From positions 6,278 through 70,277 of the forward strand of contig JANRKF010000033.1 of NCBI GenBank assembly GCA_033763575.1: a DNA stretch of 64,000 nucleotides. Direction: 5' to 3'. The translations under genes were made by a program, and so were the position numbers. The notes under the pieces were generated by a model. The model did not search any database and had not been told where the DNA came from. It saw nothing but the letters and a program-made list of their open reading frames with translations. This DNA is from Alphaproteobacteria bacterium (lineage in GTDB: Bacteria > Pseudomonadota > Alphaproteobacteria > Rickettsiales > SXRF01). Below are positions 4,495 to 50,391 of this stretch, piece by piece (within the stretch, counting starts at the first letter, position 1; every line of letters starts with the position of its first letter).

Positions 4495-4662
4495 ATGAAA
4501 ACACTTGTACAACTCTTTAAAGATGAAAATGGTGCAACCGCAATTGAATACGGCCTGATCGCCGCCCTGATTTCCGTTGCCGCTATCGGTGCAATGACTG
4601 CTCTTGGCACCCAGCTTTCGACCACTTTCGGTGATGTTACCGCAAGCCTGGCCGCTGTATAA
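4495..4662 (+). CDS. flp: Flp family type IVb pilin (55 aa)
   Basis: Unlisted short ORF: MKTLVQLFKDENGATAIEYGLIAALISVAAIGAMTALGTQLSTTFGDVTASLAAV. It has the Flp motif G/ATAIEYGLI. GGAGA lies upstream of the ATG. Confidence 0.85.
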   Translation: MKTLVQLFKDENGATAIEYGLIAALISVAAIGAMTALGTQLSTTFGDVTASLAAV

Positions 4663-4717: not shown

Positions 4718-4885
4718 ATGAAAACACTTGTACAACTTTTTAAAAATGAAGATGGCGCAACCGCAATCGAATACGGCCTGATCGCCGCCCTGATTTCTGT
4801 TGCCGCTATCGGTGCAATGACCGCTCTGGGTACTCAGCTGTCGACCACGTTCGGCGACATTACTGCGAGCCTGGCTGCTGTATAA
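4718..4885 (+). CDS. flp: Flp family type IVb pilin, tandem paralog (55 aa)
   Basis: MKTLVQLFKNEDGATAIEYGLIAALISVAAIGAMTALGTQLSTTFGDITASLAAV differs from the first copy at three residues. The 5' leader GGGAGACTGACCATG is the same. Confidence 0.85.
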   Translation: MKTLVQLFKNEDGATAIEYGLIAALISVAAIGAMTALGTQLSTTFGDITASLAAV

Positions 4886-6449: not shown

Positions 6450-7499
6450 TCAAATCCCATCCCTTGAAAAAGGGCGCTCCAGAAGGGTTTGCATCACCTC
6501 ATCCACCGTCGCCTGCTCATAAAGTATCCGATAAACGGCATGGCAAATGGGCATTTCCACCTCGTATTTACGGGCGACCTTCGTCACCGATTCGGCAGCG
6601 ATCACCCCTTCGGTCGAGGTGCGGCCACGCAATTCCAGCAGCTCTTTTACCGATTTACCCTGCCCCACCGCAATACCAAACGACATATTGCGCGATTTCT
6701 TGCTGCCGCAGGTAAGCAGCAAATCGCCCAGGCCGGCAAGTCCGGCCATCGTCTCATACCGCGCACCACGCGCCAGCGCCAGCCGGGTCATTTCGGAAAA
6801 GCCACGCGTGATAATCGCTGCCGCCGCGTTTTCGCCCATACCGCGCCCATGCGCAATCCCGCAGGCAATCGCAATCACGTTTTTAATCGCACCGCCCACC
6901 TGTGCGCCGATAATATCATCCGTGAGGTAAGGCCGGAACAGCTTGCCGCCGATAGCGTAGGTGAGGAGATCCCACTGGCTTTTGTCCTCGCAGGCGATGG
7001 TGGTGGCGGTGGGAAGCCCCCGCGCCGCCTCATCGGCGAAATTCGGGCCGGAGACAATCGCAATCGGATTGCCCGGCAGCACCGAGCGCACCACCTCGCT
7101 CATCAGCATCAGGCTGCCGCGCTCAATGCCCTTGCTCGCGACCAGAAGCAGCGTCCCGGCGTGTAATTGGTCGGATATCGAAATACAGACCGAACGCACA
7201 TAATTAGTCGGCGTCGCAATCACCAGCATATCGGCATCGCATACGTCCTTCGCCGAGTCGGTGACACTGATTTCCGGTGAAATATAGACACCCGGCAGGT
7301 AGGCATCGTTCATGCGCTTTTCCTGGATCTGGGCGATGACATTGCGATTACGGGTGTATATCTGCACGCGGCTGCCAGCGCGGTTGGCGAGGATAGCGAG
7401 CGCCGTTCCCCACGCACCGCCGCCGATGACTCCGACTTTGTATGCAGAACTATTCCCGCGAAGGCGGGAATCCTGTAGATCATTCATGGTGCTGTGCAT
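6450..7499 (-). CDS. gpsA: NAD(P)H-dependent glycerol-3-phosphate dehydrogenase
   Basis: Contains VGVIGGGAWGTALA (Rossmann fold), then NFADEAARGLPTATT and GGAIKNVIAIACGI. The track ORF extends to 7556, but that would overlap virB9. Likely starts are ATG 7499 or ATG 7487. Confidence 0.9.
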   Translation of the reverse strand: MHSTMNDLQDSRLRGNSSAYKVGVIGGGAWGTALAILANRAGSRVQIYTRNRNVIAQIQEKRMNDAYLPGVYISPEISVTDSAKDVCDADMLVIATPTNYVRSVCISISDQLHAGTLLLVASKGIERGSLMLMSEVVRSVLPGNPIAIVSGPNFADEAARGLPTATTIACEDKSQWDLLTYAIGGKLFRPYLTDDIIGAQVGGAIKNVIAIACGIAHGRGMGENAAAAIITRGFSEMTRLALARGARYETMAGLAGLGDLLLTCGSKKSRNMSFGIAVGQGKSVKELLELRGRTSTEGVIAAESVTKVARKYEVEMPICHAVYRILYEQATVDEVMQTLLERPFSRDGI

Positions 7500-11954: not shown

Positions 11955-12415
11955 AATATATATTTGTCATTGCGAGCGAAGCGCGGCAATCCATAGCTGT
12001 GAGTTGTATTAAAGCAAGATGGATCGCCACGGCCTGCGGCCTCGCGATGACGATATTTCTTATCTCACCTGCCGCCGCGCTCACTGTGGATGCGAAGCTG
12101 CCCGACCGCGCACAGGAAGCGCGTGCGCAAGCCCTTTTCCATGAATTGCGCTGCGTGGTCTGCCAGGGCGAAGCGATTGCCGATTCACCCGCCGATGTCG
12201 CACGCGATTTACGCCGCGTCGTGCGTGAAGAAATCGCGAGCGGGAAAAGCGATGACGAGGTCAAAAGCTTTCTGGTCGATCATTACGGCGAGCGCGTGCT
12301 GATGATGCCGGTGAAGAATACGCGCAATGCTCCTTTGTGGTTGCTGCCTTTAATATTGCTGCTTGGCGGCGCATTATTCGCGTGGAAACGACTGTTCCGC
12401 AGGGGGCCCCAATGA
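11951..12415 (+). CDS. ccmH: cytochrome c-type biogenesis protein CcmH
   Basis: Contains the LRCVVCQGE motif and a C-terminal TM helix. ATG 11951 overlaps the ccmG stop (ATGA). The first 32 codons are repeat-derived. An alternative start, ATG 12047 (MTIFLISPAAALT), gives a canonical length. Confidence 0.85.
   Translation: MKYIFVIASEARQSIAVSCIKARWIATACGLAMTIFLISPAAALTVDAKLPDRAQEARAQALFHELRCVVCQGEAIADSPADVARDLRRVVREEIASGKSDDEVKSFLVDHYGERVLMMPVKNTRNAPLWLLPLILLLGGALFAWKRLFRRGPQ
11966..12051. repeat. double-hairpin palindromic element (GTCATTGCGAG family)
   Basis: One arm is GTCATTGCGAGCGAAGCGCGGCAATCCAT. The other is ATGGATCGCCACGGCCTGCGGCCTCGCGATGAC. It lies in frame within the 5' part of the ccmH ORF. 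Confidence 0.7.
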
Positions 12416-25520: not shown

Positions 25521-28451
25521 TCAATACCCACTCCATTCGCTGCGGCGGATAAGATGGTCATATTCATCCCGATATTCCGGTAGTTTAGGGATGATTTCCG
25601 GGGCGTAAGGAGTATTTGCGGTGAGGCTTTCGGCAATCATCGCAAAAAGCTCCTCCTGCGTGCGCGCAAGCAAGTCGGTTGCCTCGCTGATTTCGACAAA
25701 ATCCTTGCCCTGCTCGCGGGTTTTGAGCGCCCAGTAAATCAGCGCGCCGGGCGAGGCAGCGATGCGGCCGGAACGAATCAGCGCCAGCGCGGTAAGCGGC
25801 AATTGCTTCGCCTCGCCCTTTTCGACATTGGCTTTGCCGGGCGGCGTGCCGGTTTTGTAATCGATGAGGCGGAAGCTGCCCGCCATCACATCCACCCGGT
25901 CGGCGCGGGCGGAAAAAATGATGCGCTCCCCGGCAATCTCAAATTCCCACTTCGCCGAGACCTCGCTTTCGGTGCTGTATCGTTCGCGGCGAAACTCACG
26001 TTCGCGGGCGAGCCAATGGCGGGCGATCGCCTCAAAACGCGGCCACCAGAGCGTCGCCACGCTGGGACGGTGCATATAAGGCTGGAACTCGCGCTGCCCC
26101 TGCGCGATCAGAATCTGGTAAGCCTGTTCGGGCAGGGCGTCCGGATGCGCCGCCGAAAAATGCTCAAGCGCCGAGTGAATCAACTCGCCGAACTCGCGGT
26201 TGTCCGGCTCCGCGTCGAGCTCGTCCAGCGCTTTCAATCCCAGAATATATTTCGCGTAGAAGGCATAGGGTTCGCTGCTCCACAAATCGATAGCGCTCGG
26301 CGAAAAGCGGCGCGGGCGGGCGGAAGGCGGCGGCACCGGCTTCGGGCGCTCAAGCGGCGGAAGTGCGCGGGGCGCATCCTGCGCGTCGATGCTCGCCTGC
26401 ATGAGGGCACTTATATCCATCGCCGCAAGCAGTTGCGGGTTTTTCCCGCCGACCAGCGTAGCAAGCCGCACCCACCAGCGCGACGGCTCCTGCGGGCTTC
26501 CGGATATTTTCCGCGCGCGCGACAAAATCACTTCCGGCGCATGCAGCAACATCCACACGTCATGCGCGCTCTGCCCGGTCTGCACCGCATGCGACGGCAG
26601 GCCGAACGATTCGCGCATCGGCGCGCTCATCCACGGATCGACGGTCATGGCGGCGGGCCATATCCCCTCGTTCATCTCGCCCAGAATGACGAGATCGTAA
26701 TGCATGAGCCGCGCCTCAATGGGACTTAGGATATGCAGGCGCGGATGGGTGCCAAACGGCCTGCGCGCCACTTCCCGCGCCAGCAGCGCATCGAACAAGG
26801 CGGGGTAATCATGCGGCAGGATATCGCCGAGCGCAGCCGCTGCTACCGCCCATTCAGAGAGCGTTTTCGAGAGCGCCTCGCCGCTTTCCTGCGCCCATAA
26901 AATATCGCCACCGCTTTGGTCTTGCGTAGTGGCGATCGCCTCGGCAACGCGGCAATGCACCGCCAGCAATTCGGCCAACGGAGCCGGTGTATTGCGCAGG
27001 AACAACATCTCCAGCGGACGCAGCAGCTCGCGCAGCCGCGCAATGAATTGCTGCAACCCGGCAGAGGTGGTTTTTTCTTTGAGCTCCTCCACCAGCGCAT
27101 CCATGCCCGGTTGCAGGCGCACGCCGCGCAGGCAGGCGGCCTCCAGCGCACGGCTATATTCACGCGCCGCCACCGTATCCGATTCCACCGCCGCGAAAGG
27201 ATGGCGCAGCAATGCAAGCAGCGGCAGCGGGGCCGCACCGCTTACCGCCACTTCCAGCAACAGCCGCATGAACACGGCGCCCGGCGTATCGCGCATCGGC
27301 TGCCCCGCCGAATCATCGATGGCGATGCCCCAGCGCGCACATTGCGCCGACACCATCCGCGCAAGCTGGCGGTCGGGCGTGATGAGGGCGGCGGTTTTTT
27401 CCGGCACCTCCAGCGCCTCGCGCAGCTTGAACGCAATCATCCGCGCTTCGTCGTTCTGCGTGTCGGCCTGCATCAGCGACAGATGCGCGAAATCCTGTCC
27501 AAGCGGCAACTCCGCCTCTCGCCAACGGGCGGTGAGAGCGGCGGGGGCAAAGAGCGTGCTCATTCCCTCTCCATTAGGGGGAGGGTTAGGGTGGGGGCAT
27601 ATTTGCGTTATATTACGAACATTGTGCAGGAATGCCCCCCTCCCGGCCTCCCCCCTACTGGGTGAGGAGAGGAGGAAATGCCGCAGGCCGTATTGCGGAT
27701 GGGTGGGGTCGAGCTGGTCCCACGCGGCATCGGTCATGGCGGCATCAAGCCCGGGCAAAATCACCATGCCGTTCGGCATCGCTGCAATCGCCCGAAGGAG
27801 CGCAGCAGTCGCAGGGATACTGCCGGTCGAGCCCGCCGCGACCACCGGGAAATCCGGCGGCGAGAGGCGCCATTTTTCCGCAAGCTGCAACATGCGGTCG
27901 CGCATGACCTCCGCCTCGTCGCGCATCCCCGCTTCGGCCAGAATGCGCGGCCATTGGCGGGTGATGATGGTGAGGAATTCGGTGGTGGTTTTCCAGTGTT
28001 TGGCCAGCTCCTCGAACGGCGCCAGCTCTTTCAGCTTCTCAAAATCAAGGCTGTGCCGGATGGTTTCATCAAGCAGGCGGGCAAGCTCGACCGCAAGCTG
28101 ATAGGCCCGCGCCGGCGTGGTTTGCCCCTGCCCGAGAATGAGGCGGGTAAGCATGGAGAGCCGCTCTTTCTCCGGCATGATGCGCGGCACCTCTTCGCCC
28201 GCGAGCGCAAGAATATCCGCCTCGCCGTCGATTTCACCGATCGGCATGATGCGCGGCAGCAGAAGCGGCGTGCCCATGCTTTCGCGCAAAAACGCCTCGC
28301 GCAGGCTGCGGCAGCTCCGGCGCGACGGCAGCAGCACCAGCGTCCGCGCCAGCTCCAGCGGATCGCCGCGATGCTTCGCAAGCAGCATACCGGCCAGTGC
28401 ATCGAGGAACGGCAGGTGCGGCGGCAGGTTATAAAAACATCGAACGCTCAT
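25521..28451 (-). CDS. addB: double-strand break repair protein AddB (alphaproteobacterial type)
   Basis: About 976 aa. The N-terminus is MSVRCFYNLPPHLPFLDALA. The C-terminal PD-(D/E)XK nuclease region is RADRVD...RLIDYKTG. The track ORF start at 28547 lies in a repeat. ATG 28451 is preferred. Confidence 0.85.
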   Translation of the reverse strand: MSVRCFYNLPPHLPFLDALAGMLLAKHRGDPLELARTLVLLPSRRSCRSLREAFLRESMGTPLLLPRIMPIGEIDGEADILALAGEEVPRIMPEKERLSMLTRLILGQGQTTPARAYQLAVELARLLDETIRHSLDFEKLKELAPFEELAKHWKTTTEFLTIITRQWPRILAEAGMRDEAEVMRDRMLQLAEKWRLSPPDFPVVAAGSTGSIPATAALLRAIAAMPNGMVILPGLDAAMTDAAWDQLDPTHPQYGLRHFLLSSPSRGEAGRGAFLHNVRNITQICPHPNPPPNGEGMSTLFAPAALTARWREAELPLGQDFAHLSLMQADTQNDEARMIAFKLREALEVPEKTAALITPDRQLARMVSAQCARWGIAIDDSAGQPMRDTPGAVFMRLLLEVAVSGAAPLPLLALLRHPFAAVESDTVAAREYSRALEAACLRGVRLQPGMDALVEELKEKTTSAGLQQFIARLRELLRPLEMLFLRNTPAPLAELLAVHCRVAEAIATTQDQSGGDILWAQESGEALSKTLSEWAVAAAALGDILPHDYPALFDALLAREVARRPFGTHPRLHILSPIEARLMHYDLVILGEMNEGIWPAAMTVDPWMSAPMRESFGLPSHAVQTGQSAHDVWMLLHAPEVILSRARKISGSPQEPSRWWVRLATLVGGKNPQLLAAMDISALMQASIDAQDAPRALPPLERPKPVPPPSARPRRFSPSAIDLWSSEPYAFYAKYILGLKALDELDAEPDNREFGELIHSALEHFSAAHPDALPEQAYQILIAQGQREFQPYMHRPSVATLWWPRFEAIARHWLAREREFRRERYSTESEVSAKWEFEIAGERIIFSARADRVDVMAGSFRLIDYKTGTPPGKANVEKGEAKQLPLTALALIRSGRIAASPGALIYWALKTREQGKDFVEISEATDLLARTQEELFAMIAESLTANTPYAPEIIPKLPEYRDEYDHLIRRSEWSGY
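27565..27674. repeat. palindromic G/C-tract element inserted in frame inside addB
   Basis: One arm is CCTCTCCATTAGGGGGAGGGTTAGGGTGGGGGCAT. The other is ATGCCCCCCTCCCGGCCTCCCCCCTACTGGGTGAGGAGAGG. It is translated as SPSRGEAGRGAFLHNVRNITQICPHPNPPPNGEG. Confidence 0.6.
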
Positions 28452-28462
28452 ACACATACCTT

Positions 28463-28666
28463 CGCTCCCCCCTTGAGGGGGAGCGGCTGAAAGCGAGCAT
28501 GTAAAGCGACGCTCGAAGCTGTGGGGGGTGATTTTTGAAACTGGCACAAGGCGTCAAGCATCAGATAGGCGATGCCCAGCCCGCGACCTTCAACATCTAA
28601 TCCCCCCCACGGCTTAACCAGCGTGCGTTGCACTTGGTTTCGCCTGCTCCCCCTCAAGGGGGGAGC
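28463..28666. repeat. nested palindromic element in the addB 5' region
   Basis: Its ends are CGCTCCCCCCTTGAGGGGGAGCG and GCTCCCCCTCAAGGGGGGAGC. The inner inverted pair is GTGGGGGGTGAT / ATCTAATCCCCCCCAC. Confidence 0.55.
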
Positions 28667-28769
28667 GTAGTATAGAAGTATATGAAAACATCGGTTATTC
28701 ATGATATCTTAATATGTAAAACGCATAGATTATGCTATCATTACTCCATACCAGACGATGTGAAAAGAC

Positions 28770-30401
28770 ATGGTTGCTGACATCGAACAAGTGCCGGAAT
28801 TATTGGCCTACGAATTAGCCACGCTTTGGCGCGCCCATGCGGCGGTGGGGCTTTCGGGCTTCATGCAGCTCTATACCCGCGACGACCAGGTGCCGTTTCG
28901 CGCCAAGCAGGCGGGGCTTTCGTTCTGGTTCGGGCCGGACGACAACGAGGCGGCGATTGCCGAGATCATCCGGCATTACAACTCCGGCCAGCTTCCCAAC
29001 ACGCCGCTCCTCCTCAACCCCATCGTGCATAAAAAAGAGGGGGGCGATTATGTGCCGCTCGGTTCGGGGTTCGCGTGGTGCACATCGCTCTCGCTTGGCG
29101 TCGATGTCCTCAACAACGAATCCGGCGAGCGGCTTCAGGAGGCGGGCGCCATCGCCGGGCTGTTCGAGCGCGGCGATAATGACCGCGCCGGCCTCAAAAT
29201 CCTCGCCTTCACCACCGAAGCCCAACCACCCACAGGGGACGGGAAAACCGTCACCGGCTGCCGCGAGCTTTACGAGCTGGCCCATATCAAAAGCGAGCAA
29301 TATGCCGGTCATTACCTGCTGTCGGGTATTTCCTACCTCACCAATAACGGCCTGTTCCAGCACCCCGATTTCAGGGCGCTGTTTAAAAGCGAAGTGGACA
29401 TAAAAACGCTCGCGATCAATGTGCAAAACGTGATCGATGCCGCCTATTGCTGGAATGCTTACGACCACCACCATTCGCTCTACCAGAAATTCGGGCGCAA
29501 ACCGGCGAATGTCGAACAAAACCTGCGTTTTTTCAATCTGGTCGCACGCGATGTGAGGCTGTTCGATGCCACCGGCCCGATGCGCAAAGAGGCCGATGCC
29601 ATGTTCGAATTTATCGTGCCGGGATGGATTCCCCGCGGCGCGGTGACGCTGCTTGCGGCTTCCGGCGGCACCGGAAAATCCAGCCTCGCCCACCAGCTCT
29701 GCGTCATGGGCGCGATCGATTACAAGAAAGGCGAAGAAGCGCCGAAATGGCTGGGCCAGCGGCTGGCGATCGAGAAATGCACCGGCATCAATGTTTATTT
29801 CGCAGGCGAGGACGGCCCGCCGATCATCAACGCTCGCGCCGCGCTGTTCGACCCCAAGGGCCGCGCCAAACGCCTGATGTTCCAACGCACCGATTTCGGC
29901 GAGGGCGTCACCTTCCCGGAATATCTCCGCAGCCTGCACAAGATTCCGGAAGTGCCGATCATGGTGATCGATCCGGCGCGGAAATACCTGACCGGCGATG
30001 AGAACGACGCCGGGGCGGTGAGTGAATTCTTCGAGGCGATTGAAGAATTCGCAATCAAGAAAAATACCGCCGTGGTGGTGGTGCATCACCTGCAGAAAAA
30101 CGCCTACCCCAAAACCGCGCGCGAGGTGCTCGATATGCTGCGTGGATCGCAGGTGTTCATCGACCGGCCCCGCGTGGTAATCGGCATGTTCCGCGACGGG
30201 CCGTATACGATTGCCGGGCTGGCCAAAAACAACATCCCGCCGAATATGGGCATGGTCGCCGAGGAGCGCGTTTTCGCCCGCGACCCGCAGCATTTAAGCC
30301 TCATCTGGATGCCCGGCGACCAGGGCATACGCAATGCAGCGCTTTCGGAAGAAGAGCTGGAAGCGCTCGCCGAAGAAGCCAAAAAAGAGGGCCGGATCTA
30401 A
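28770..30401 (+). CDS. RepA/AAA_25-like RecA-fold ATPase with an unknown ~290-aa N-terminal domain
   Basis: Walker A LLAASGGTGKSSLAHQL, Walker B IMVIDPA, and VVVVHHLQKN as in RepA-like/AAA_25 ATPases. The N-terminal half matches nothing I recognise. Confidence 0.7.
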   Translation: MVADIEQVPELLAYELATLWRAHAAVGLSGFMQLYTRDDQVPFRAKQAGLSFWFGPDDNEAAIAEIIRHYNSGQLPNTPLLLNPIVHKKEGGDYVPLGSGFAWCTSLSLGVDVLNNESGERLQEAGAIAGLFERGDNDRAGLKILAFTTEAQPPTGDGKTVTGCRELYELAHIKSEQYAGHYLLSGISYLTNNGLFQHPDFRALFKSEVDIKTLAINVQNVIDAAYCWNAYDHHHSLYQKFGRKPANVEQNLRFFNLVARDVRLFDATGPMRKEADAMFEFIVPGWIPRGAVTLLAASGGTGKSSLAHQLCVMGAIDYKKGEEAPKWLGQRLAIEKCTGINVYFAGEDGPPIINARAALFDPKGRAKRLMFQRTDFGEGVTFPEYLRSLHKIPEVPIMVIDPARKYLTGDENDAGAVSEFFEAIEEFAIKKNTAVVVVHHLQKNAYPKTAREVLDMLRGSQVFIDRPRVVIGMFRDGPYTIAGLAKNNIPPNMGMVAEERVFARDPQHLSLIWMPGDQGIRNAALSEEELEALAEEAKKEGRI

Positions 30402-30572
30402 AACCTCCCCCCTTGAGGGGGAGGAAGAAATTTCTTGGGCTTACAACGTAAGCCTTAGAAATTTCAGGTGGGGGGTACAGCTTCTTCAAGTTTACCCCTC
30501 TCCCACTCGACTAACCGCTTCCCTTCGGTAAGCGGAAGTCTCGTTGCCCTCTCCCTCAAGGGGAGAGGGAAT
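30399..30572 (+). mobile_element. 174-bp multi-hairpin element, copy 1, starting with the TAA stop of the ATPase gene
   Basis: It is roughly 95 percent identical by eye to the reverse complement of 49121..49294. It is flanked by a 25-bp imperfect direct repeat (30374-30398 and 30573-30597). Confidence 0.85.
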
Positions 30573-30605
30573 AGAAGCCAAAAAAGAGGGGCGGATTTAG
30601 CTTTT

Positions 30606-30695
30606 GTCATTGCGAGGAGCGCAGCGACGTGGCAATCCATTTTACTTATCAACACAGGCAAGGCAGATGGATTGCTTTGCTATGCTCGCAATGAC
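30606..30695. repeat. double-hairpin palindromic element (GTCATTGCGAG family)
   Basis: One arm is GTCATTGCGAGGAGCGCAGCGACGTGGCAATCCAT. The other is ATGGATTGCTTTGCTATGCTCGCAATGAC. It lies just upstream of tgt. Confidence 0.7.
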
Positions 30696-30704
30696 GAATA
30701 GAAC

Positions 30705-48941: not shown

Positions 48942-49120
48942 CCTCCGTTACGATGATTCGATTACTGTTATTATTTTTTCCCGGCTTTTTACGCGCCGGT
49001 GTTTTGTGCCATCAGCCTAACGCAACCGGATAATAGGGCAAGGGGGTTTTTGGTTAACAATCTGAAATAACTAAGTAATTTAGTATGCTATTGTCAGGCC
49101 CGGTACAGCGCCCCGCCGGT

Positions 49121-49294
49121 TATCTGCCTCTCCCCTTGAGGGAGAGGGCAACGAGACTTCCGCTTCCGAAGGAAAGCGGTTAGTCGAGTGGGAGAGGGGT
49201 AAACTTGAAGGCTGCACCCCCCACCTGAAATTTCTAAGGCTTACGTTGTAAGCCCAAGAAATTTCTTCCTCCCCCTCAAGGGGGGAGGTTTTAA
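49121..49294 (-). mobile_element. 174-bp multi-hairpin element, copy 2, abutting the anmK stop codon
   Basis: It is the reverse complement of copy 1 (30399..30572), with a few substitutions and indels. It is flanked by a perfect 23-bp direct repeat (49098-49120 and 49295-49317). Confidence 0.85.
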
Positions 49295-50391
49295 GCCCGG
49301 TACAGCGCCCCGCCGGTCACGGCACGCAGTGCGCCGGTGGTGGTGGGCAGCGACAGCGGCAATCGTTTCAGGCTGCGCACGGCGAGGAACGCGAAGGCCT
49401 GCGCCTCCAGCGCATCGCCTTTCCAGCCGAGCGCCTCGACGCGGTAGACATTGCCGAGCGCGTCTTTCAAGCCCTGCATCAGGGCCGGGTTCAGCCTGCC
49501 GCCGCCGGAAACAAACCATTGCCGGGCCGGCGCCGGAAAATAGTGCTGCCCGCGCCTGACCGCTTCGACCACGAAGGCGGTAAGCGTCGCCGCGCCGTCT
49601 TCCGCGGAAAGATGCTGCATGTGATCGGCGGAGAAGTGATTGCGGTCGAGCGATTTCGGCGGATGCTTGGAAAAATAAGCATTGTTGAGCAACATATCGA
49701 GCGTGGCCTGATCCACTTTCCCCGCAAGCGCCAGCTTGCCGTCGGCATCGTAATCGACGCCGGTTTTCGCATCGGCCCATTCATTGAGCATCACGTTGCC
49801 GGGGCCGGTATCGAACGCGAGGATGTCCAGCGCCATCAGCTCCGACCCGCCGCGCTCGGACTTCCCGATCCATGTGACATTGGCAATGCCACCGATATTC
49901 AGCACCGCGATCGGCAGCTCCATATGCCTTGAGAGCGCCGCGTGATAAAGCGGAACCAGCGGCGCACCCTCGCCGCCCGCCGCCACATCGCGCCGCCGGA
50001 AATCGCACACCACGTCGATCTTGGTTTTTTCCGCCAACAGCGCGCCGTTGCCCATCTGCCAGGTGAGATCCTCCTCCGGGCGATGCGCCACCGTCTGCCC
50101 GTGGAAACCCACCACCTGCACGTCTTTATAAGAAAGCCCCGCCTTGTCGAGCAGCATCTTCACCGCCTCGGCGTGCTTCATGGTCATCACATGCTCGGCC
50201 AGCAGCAAATCGCCGCGCCCGCGCACCGCCGCCGCCAGTATCGCCTTCATCGCCTCGTCATACGGCAGAGTGAGCCACGCCCCGAACTCATGCACCTGCT
50301 CGCCGTCCGTGCGGATGAGCGCCGCGTCAATGCCGTCAAGCGACGTGCCGCTCATCAGCCCCAGCGACCAGCGTGTTTCTTCTTTTTGCAT
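49291..50391 (-). CDS. anmK: anhydro-N-acetylmuramic acid kinase
   Basis: 366 aa. Contains GLMSGTSLDGIDAAL, GFHGQTV, DFRRRDVAAGGEGAPL and FDTGPGN. Confidence 0.9.
   Translation of the reverse strand: MQKEETRWSLGLMSGTSLDGIDAALIRTDGEQVHEFGAWLTLPYDEAMKAILAAAVRGRGDLLLAEHVMTMKHAEAVKMLLDKAGLSYKDVQVVGFHGQTVAHRPEEDLTWQMGNGALLAEKTKIDVVCDFRRRDVAAGGEGAPLVPLYHAALSRHMELPIAVLNIGGIANVTWIGKSERGGSELMALDILAFDTGPGNVMLNEWADAKTGVDYDADGKLALAGKVDQATLDMLLNNAYFSKHPPKSLDRNHFSADHMQHLSAEDGAATLTAFVVEAVRRGQHYFPAPARQWFVSGGGRLNPALMQGLKDALGNVYRVEALGWKGDALEAQAFAFLAVRSLKRLPLSLPTTTGALRAVTGGALYRA

Follow-up and report, generated by a model that had tools for sequence, protein, structure and literature searches.

Within a 64,000-nucleotide stretch of DNA (the window) from an alphaproteobacterium of the order Rickettsiales, taken from contig JANRKF010000033.1 of assembly GCA_033763575.1, three small hairpin-rich elements are found directly at the coding ends of three genes. 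Element A lies at the 3' end of an ATPase gene, element B at the 3' end of anmK, and element C at the 5' end of an addB-like gene. All three are insertions with an abutting duplication of 22-25 bp of unrelated host DNA, or of 27-28 bp if the stop codon is counted. One copy of each duplicated sequence, referred to as the live copy, remains joined to the host gene, while the other, the relic, lies on the far side of the element. The coordinates of all features are collected in Table 1.

The ATPase gene matches Pfam PF13481 (E = 6.8e-21), and its last eight codons are present twice. The relic of this 25-mer (30573-30597) differs from the live copy by two mismatches, GGC/GGG and ATC/ATT, which are both synonymous. 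The live copy is followed by TAA, whereas the relic is followed by TAG. These features, together with the hairpin chain between the two copies, had been described in an earlier note on this DNA, and all of its statements on the sequence were confirmed. Element A has a calculated folding energy of -95.8 kcal/mol as RNA (z = -9.3 against shuffled sequences) and of -50.3 kcal/mol as DNA (z = -9.1), and its ends form a 28-nt inverted repeat with 82% complementarity (30397-30424 and 30548-30575).

Element B is located directly after the last codon of anmK (Pfam PF03702, E = 3e-87), and, relative to its host gene, it has the same orientation as element A. The two elements are 97% identical over 170 nt and lie 18.7 kb apart at unrelated host genes, which indicates recent mobility. 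A near-identical copy in this position and orientation had already been reported in the earlier note; it is corroborated by the sequence identity and by an exact 23-mer on both flanks (49098-49120 and 49295-49317). The base just before the TAA differs between the live copy and the relic at both loci (C/T at locus A, T/C at locus B), so that the exact repeat amounts to 24 nt at locus A and 23 nt at locus B. Counting the stop codon, the repeats comprise 28 nt with three mismatches and 27 nt with two mismatches, respectively.

Element C is inserted between the divergent addB-like and ATPase genes, where relatives have about 67-72 bp. Its orientation relative to the host gene is the same as that of A and B, and as a whole it forms an imperfect palindrome with 69% self-complementarity over 223 nt. 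At one of its ends GTAG stands beside the hairpin, and a GAAGG motif at the element end precedes the live ATG of the addB-like gene by 7 nt. The direct repeat (28430-28451 and 28681-28702) is identical at 16 of 22 positions, and an alignment of the orthologous intergenic regions places the relic next to the conserved upstream region, to which it is still attached. The reading frame of 84 codons that starts at the relic ATG and ends in a TGA overlapping the live ATG (ATGA) is the only one of the six frames that is open through element C; the probability of such an open frame was about 0.06 in shuffled sequences.

The longest open reading frame (ORF) call for the addB-like gene (25521-28547, minus strand; 1008 aa) has a GTG start and includes 32 codons inside element C (..SLSAAPPQGGSEGMC-MSVRCF..). 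The extra N-terminal residues are artefactual and stem from the insertion; the orthologues begin where the internal ATG lies (28451). For annotation, gene-end relics and read-through ORFs such as these carry the risk of being mis-called as genes or as N-terminal extensions. A stretch inside the addB-like coding sequence (27562-27668, minus strand) also resembles a degenerate hairpin element and ends in ..CCCTCCCCCTAATGGAGAGGGAAT like the right end of element A. This stretch is read in frame (..SSPSRGEAGRGAFLHNVRNITQICPHPNPPPNGEGM..) and accounts for about 21-29 residues missing from three orthologues; it has the look of a related element that entered a variable loop in frame long ago.

Table 1. 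Features of the three insertion loci in the window (CDS, coding sequence).
Feature	Positions	Strand	Description	Basis
Host gene 1	28770-30401	+	AAA_25 ATPase CDS, 543 aa, ending ..EAKKEGRI + TAA	ORF list, Pfam
Locus A, live copy	30374-30398	+	Duplicated host 25-mer, last 8 ATPase codons (AGAAGCCAAAAAAGAGGGCCGGATC)	
Element A	30399-30572	+	174 nt, begins with TAA (30399-30401)	
Hairpins of element A	30404-30424, 30427-30465, 30468-30506, 30509-30540, 30547-30569		H1, H2, H3, H4 and H5, in this order	
Locus A, relic	30573-30600	+	Copy of the 25-mer with its own stop TAG (30598-30600)	
Host gene 2	49291-50391	-	anmK CDS, 366 aa, ending ..GGALYRA + TAA	ORF list, Pfam
Locus B, live copy	49294-49317	-	49295-49317 exact 23-mer; 49294 variable base before TAA	
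Element B	49121-49293	-	173 nt; TAA at 49291-49293	
Locus B, relic	49094-49120	-	49098-49120 exact; last codon GCC 49097-49099; stop TGA 49094-49096	
Host gene 3	25521-28451	-	addB-like (PDDEXK_1) CDS, live ATG 28449-28451 (MSVRCFYNLPP..)	
Locus C, live copy	28430-28451	-	Duplicated first 22 nt of the CDS (ATGAGCGTTCGATGTTTTTATA), joined to the gene	
Element C	28452-28680	-	229 nt, terminal hairpins as in A and B (CTCCCCCCTTGAGGGGGAG), interior different	
Locus C, relic	28681-28702	-	Copy of the CDS start (ATGAATAACCGATGTTTTCATA)	Aligned intergenic regions from orthologous loci
Read-through ORF	28448-28702	-	84 codons, from the relic ATG through element C to a TGA overlapping the live ATG (ATGA)	

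The elements, which probably form one family, are 173-229 nt long and non-coding, with terminal inverted repeats of about 26-28 nt that each fold into a GC hairpin and an interior made up of further hairpins. The window has six occurrences of the 19-nt core of the terminal hairpin, CTCCCCCCTTGAGGGGGAG, one at either end of A, B, and C, where chance alone would give 0.6; the core is identical at four of these six ends and has one mismatch at the other two. Elements A and B contain stop codons in every frame; C has a single open frame, and that frame is dictated by the host start. Local alignment of the two flanks with each other gave scores of 22 and 23 for loci A and B and of 10.5 for locus C (p about 0.005), against a null of mismatched flank pairs with a mean of 6.1, a 99th percentile of 9.5 and a maximum of 15. 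Among the 53 gene 3' ends in the window, a downstream relic is present only at those of the ATPase gene and anmK. That all three repeat differences are synonymous is not significant (P about 0.08), and this was dropped as an argument. The sole other signal of a duplicated gene end in the window comes from tandem paralogues of a Flp-type pilin (4495-4662 and 4718-4885, plus strand), which encode 55-aa products (MKTLVQLFK..), are 90% identical over 183 nt and are unrelated to the element.

The orthologous sites in relatives, which the earlier note had proposed to look for, were compared in a sample of 13 contigs with a total of 96 kb and 80-90% amino acid identity. All sites fetched are empty and have a single gene end, which supports a mobile insertion. 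In contigs L002-L004 the ATPase gene ends only once, with its stop codon, and is followed by ordinary intergenic DNA; their addB/ATPase site is also empty. In L129, the gap between the ATPase gene and tgt is 89 bp, which is too short for the element. Downstream of anmK, a single gene end with neither element nor duplication is found in L126-L134. A BLAST search of both element types against the 96 kb of relatives found no copy, and a relative with the duplicated 25-mer and without the element, a case that the earlier note had named as refuting its reading, was not found among the sites fetched. Together, the empty sites and the absence of copies from these relatives indicate that A, B, and C are lineage-specific insertions. 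The ends ..KKEGRI and ..GGALYRA are conserved native C-termini in the relatives. The insertions therefore leave the ATPase and AnmK proteins unchanged, in agreement with the proposal of the earlier note that the host C-terminus is preserved.

Further copies were sought outside these contigs. An element-specific 20-mer had a single match in 596 Gb of reference genomes, located in a coding region of Vibrio and judged to be a chance match, and an element-specific 24-mer had no match in metagenome contigs. Two viral scans, one of them with this 24-mer, and a distant BLAST search against plasmids also found nothing, and an ORF derived from the element had no relatives in the protein database. The 19-nt hairpin core alone is present at at least 120 loci in metagenome contigs, almost all of which belong to other repeat families with the same hairpin. 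Among the proteins encoded beside the loci listed, no family recurred that would qualify as a transposase. Only one true relative was found among the matches listed, at positions 6405-6600 of contig L025. It shows 80% identity over 75 nt, has the layout H1-H2-GGTGGGGGG and lies about 10 nt after a stop codon. This stop codon belongs to a GspE/PilB-like ATPase gene, and on its other side the L025 element is followed by the 3' end of a gene ending in ..FHGEWNYTIAPNAE (6600-6730), where the contig ends. Judging from the FHGEWNYTI motif, the C-terminus encoded by this neighbour presumably resembles that of ISAzo13-type transposases, and it was treated as incidental.

[quoted passage not shown] Their lengths of 173, 174, and 229 nt, the absence of coding capacity, the terminal inverted repeats, the copy-specific flanking duplications and the empty sites in relatives are the features by which MITEs are recognized. 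Integration would be catalyzed by a transposase acting in trans whose cuts in the two strands of the target are spaced by about 2 to 2.5 helical turns, like those of the TnsB-like DDE transposases of the IS1202 group. Repair of the gaps would then duplicate the stretch between the staggered cuts. Because the duplicated stretch spans eight codons, a gene hit within roughly 25 nt of either coding end keeps one intact copy of that end. At the 3' ends (A and B), the reading frame would run straight into the TAA at the edge of the element. At the 5' end (C), translation from the orphaned native start may cross the element and stop at the ATGA overlapping the regenerated start, which would couple the two frames, with GAAGG placed 7 nt upstream of the regenerated start. 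For the host genes, the insertions thus look harmless.

The earlier note held a duplication of 23-25 bp to be much longer than the known target-site duplications of insertion sequences (IS). This premise proved wrong, as the IS1202 group has target duplications of 16-28 bp (27 bp in IS1202, 28 bp in ISSeq2 and 16-17 bp in the ISTde1 subgroup), together with inverted repeats of 23-26 bp and no fixed target sequence reported (PMC10132070; bioRxiv 10.1101/2022.12.17.520857). The elements described here share with IS1202 and ISSeq2, which encode a TnsB-like DDE transposase, the unusually long duplications and terminal inverted repeats of similar length. They differ in being non-coding and 173-229 nt long, whereas the members of the IS1202 group are autonomous IS of 1.3-1.7 kb with a transposase of 394-507 aa. 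Furthermore, the duplication in the IS1202 subgroup is 27-28 bp, compared with exact lengths of 24, 23, and 22 bp here, or of 28 and 27 bp with three and two mismatches if the stop codon is counted. Ends in the IS1202 group begin with 5'-TGT; in the IS1202 subgroup this holds for the right repeat (IRR), and the left one (IRL) begins with 5'-T(A/G)T. Those of the present elements are GC hairpins that start with TAAAACC.. and, in reverse complement, ATTCCC.. or TATCTGC... The IS1202 group is the closest mechanistic precedent, with ends unlike those that mark membership in it.

Bacterial MITEs in general, such as Correia/NEMIS, ERIC and the Coxiella QMITEs, resemble the present elements in being small, non-coding and strongly folded, in carrying inverted and direct repeats and in their location in or near transcription units. 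Described MITEs are known with duplications of 2-10 bp, and none is known to restore the end of a coding sequence by duplicating about 25 bp. Should long duplications be a regular product of the family, the elements would represent a non-autonomous type with a stagger on the scale of IS1202, of which no description was found in the literature searched. The duplication itself would then restore the gene and offer a transposon a simple route into coding ends without harm to the host.

A number of observations weigh against a transposon with a long target duplication. Four of the five differences between live copies and relics are located in the 4 nt adjoining the element, which a simple staggered-cut model does not predict. 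The termini (TAAAACC.. and ..GGGAAT) lack the 5'-TGT of IS1202-family ends, and the sample consists of three insertions, in one of which (C) the repeat matches at only 16 of 22 positions. Ends dominated by hairpins are more usual in single-strand transposition of the HUH/RAYT type, which makes no duplication. The metagenome matches listed include about 40 other elements with paired hairpins of this 19-mer, none of which has a long flanking repeat, and the related element in L025 has no flanking repeat either. Finally, neither a transposase nor an autonomous partner with these ends was found, the six hairpin ends being the only ones in the window.

The origin of the stop codon following the live copies bears on the length of the duplication. 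Elements A and B are identical from the TAA inward, and the relics keep TAG and TGA, respectively. From this pattern, an element-borne TAA would be the more parsimonious reading and is favoured, as the earlier note had assumed. This part of its claim stands as the simpler account but is not established, since the native anmK end of L126, the closest relative, reads ..CGG GCT TAA and is identical to the live copy, while anmK of L129 ends in TGA like the relic. In addition, the ATPase gene of L002 ends in ATT TAA. Given the end in L126, the TAA could also be host sequence inside a duplication of 27-28 bp, and the duplications would in this case measure 28 and 27 bp, which is the value of IS1202. 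The outgroups cannot polarize the differences between live copies and relics because the synonymous sites are saturated and the relatives disagree. A TA duplication as in IS630-like elements was rejected, as it explains the formation of the TAA but not the extra 24 nt.

At each of the three loci, one edge of the duplicated segment falls on a coding boundary, namely on the last sense codon at A and B and on the A of the ATG at C. This may result from purifying selection on a compact genome or from a true target preference, and the data are compatible with both. About 87% of the window is coding (greedy ORF count), so that harmless sites are scarce. Selection alone is nevertheless hard to credit for two insertions in an identical register and a third one exactly at an ATG. 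If the coincidence reflects targeting, the question becomes how a DNA integration machinery locates start and stop codons. The earlier note had suggested a dedicated mode of insertion at the 3' ends of genes; this is not established, as element C has the same ends and sits at a 5' end, and the sample comprises three insertions.

A rather unlikely alternative is that the elements home to translation boundaries, with an integration machinery aimed at start and stop sites, a stop codon at the 5' edge of the element and a Shine-Dalgarno-like motif and a read-through ORF at its 3' edge. Homing would account for a duplication boundary no further than 1 to 4 nt from a start or stop codon in three of three cases and for the identical register of A and B despite 100-150 other intergenic positions. 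It would also agree with a TAA as the first triplet common to A and B beside relics with other stop codons, with the clustering of the live/relic differences in the 4 nt beside the element, and with the fact that the only open frame through C is that set by the relic ATG. [quoted passage not shown] Only element C resembles them in having an ORF that overlaps the host start by 4 nt (ATGA). Unlike the present elements, MIRUs are tandem mycobacterial units of 46-101 bp without hairpin chains and inverted-repeat ends, and long duplications are not described for them.

Homing is, however, based on three cases with no common sequence motif visible at the three targets, and a DNA transposase cannot read codons. 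In a genome as compact as this one, selection alone could confine the surviving copies to harmless sites. Furthermore, the native end in L126 weakens the case for an element-borne stop, and the L025 relative, some 10 nt past a stop codon, has no duplication. The more specific proposal of a class of mini-transposons specialized for translation boundaries, in which the duplication of about 25 bp regenerates the codons and the element supplies a stop on one side and a ribosome-delivering ORF with a Shine-Dalgarno-like motif on the other, is doubtful for the same loci and can be put forward only tentatively. If such a class existed, insertions at the very ends of genes would be phenotypically silent in a compact genome, and this would imply a mechanism of target selection that can locate starts and stops, or else that some structure or protein marks them.

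It is improbable that the elements are hairpin elements of the REP/REPIN (repetitive extragenic palindromic) or IS200/IS605 type, moved as single-stranded DNA by an HUH enzyme (RAYT/TnpA-Y1), with the duplications as a secondary product, for instance of slippage during replication or of repair of breaks at the palindrome. The elements do consist almost entirely of hairpins, C is one long imperfect palindrome with GTAG beside the hairpin at one end, and in hairpin H2 the structure is conserved and not the sequence. REP/REPIN sequences mobilized by RAYT are likewise GC-rich extragenic palindromes that occur as inverted pairs with conserved structure. However, IS200/IS605 and REP/RAYT elements are known to make no target duplication, whereas all three independent insertions have repeats of 22-25 bp abutting the element. 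REPs would moreover be expected in hundreds of copies per genome, compared with three copies in 64 kb here, and no RAYT or TnpA gene was seen among the 10 of the window's other ORFs that were scanned.

The conservation of H2 was assessed in an alignment of A, B, and both halves of the element in L025. In this alignment 99% of cells are paired, and 6 of 17 pairs are changed on both sides (compensatory). The covariation score was reached by no shuffle, and controls slid along the sequence fall to 36-63% paired. Pairing is thus kept through six compensatory pairs, indicating that the hairpin structure is conserved and under selection. No Rfam match at these loci reached any gathering threshold. 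A permissive search over 300 nt aligned 30401-30476 (plus strand) with the orphan motif whalefall-1 (RF01762) along the full length of the motif, at 25.3 bits and E = 1e-4. This score and that of the L025 relative (16.5 bits) lie below the gathering threshold of 37 bits. Element A and whalefall-1 share the order of modules, which comprises a CUCCCC..GGGGAG hairpin, an A-rich linker, a variable second hairpin and AG(G)UG/GGGAGG. The members of whalefall-1 differ in being AT-rich, in being known from a whale-fall metagenome only and in their different, larger conserved context. Membership in this family was rejected because of the score below threshold and the different context, and the match is kept as a lead only; whalefall-1 could itself be a module of a repeat element.

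On the same evidence, the elements could be viewed as a structured non-coding RNA module, such as a 3' untranslated region, a small RNA or a stabilizer, possibly related to whalefall-1, that has spread and whose function lies at the RNA level with mobility being incidental. The very stable fold with its compensatory changes, the sub-threshold whalefall-1 match over the full length and the constant co-orientation with the host transcript would fit such a module. It is nonetheless very improbable, since the whalefall-1 score is below the gathering threshold, the members of that family come from AT-rich contigs with a different and larger conserved context, and the flanking duplications would be left unexplained; a structured RNA is compatible with the transposon and hardly a rival to it. 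Site-specific integration of the integrase/att type, which likewise leaves a duplicated gene end when elements target gene 3' ends, and an assembly artefact are both contradicted by the sequences and were rejected as having next to no likelihood, because the three duplicated sequences are mutually unrelated and share no att core, as the earlier note had rightly argued for integrases, because the element is too small to encode anything, and because the repeats differ by point mutations and have unique junctions, which a misassembly of collapsed repeats would not create.

The shared orientation of A, B, and C may have a simple cause. An intrinsic terminator is scored for hairpin H1 followed by TTTTA (30404-30430, minus strand), and only on the antisense strand of the host gene. 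The shared orientation is therefore plausibly explained by a terminator that faces antisense only and leaves host transcripts unterminated. In the observed orientation, it is plausible that host transcripts continue into the downstream genes, which are tgt at locus A and the next gene after anmK at locus B.

A second, unrelated palindromic repeat is located directly after the relic stop codon of locus A (30606-30700) and has the form GTCATTGCGAG..GCAATCCAT / ATGGATTGC..CTCGCAATGAC. Partial copies of it are present at 21530-21571 and 11961-11994. Relatives contain analogous but different palindromes beside the same genes, namely gtcattctgcgg.. in L004, gtcatcccgagcg.. in L132 and gtcattccggcgaaagccggaatcc in L133.

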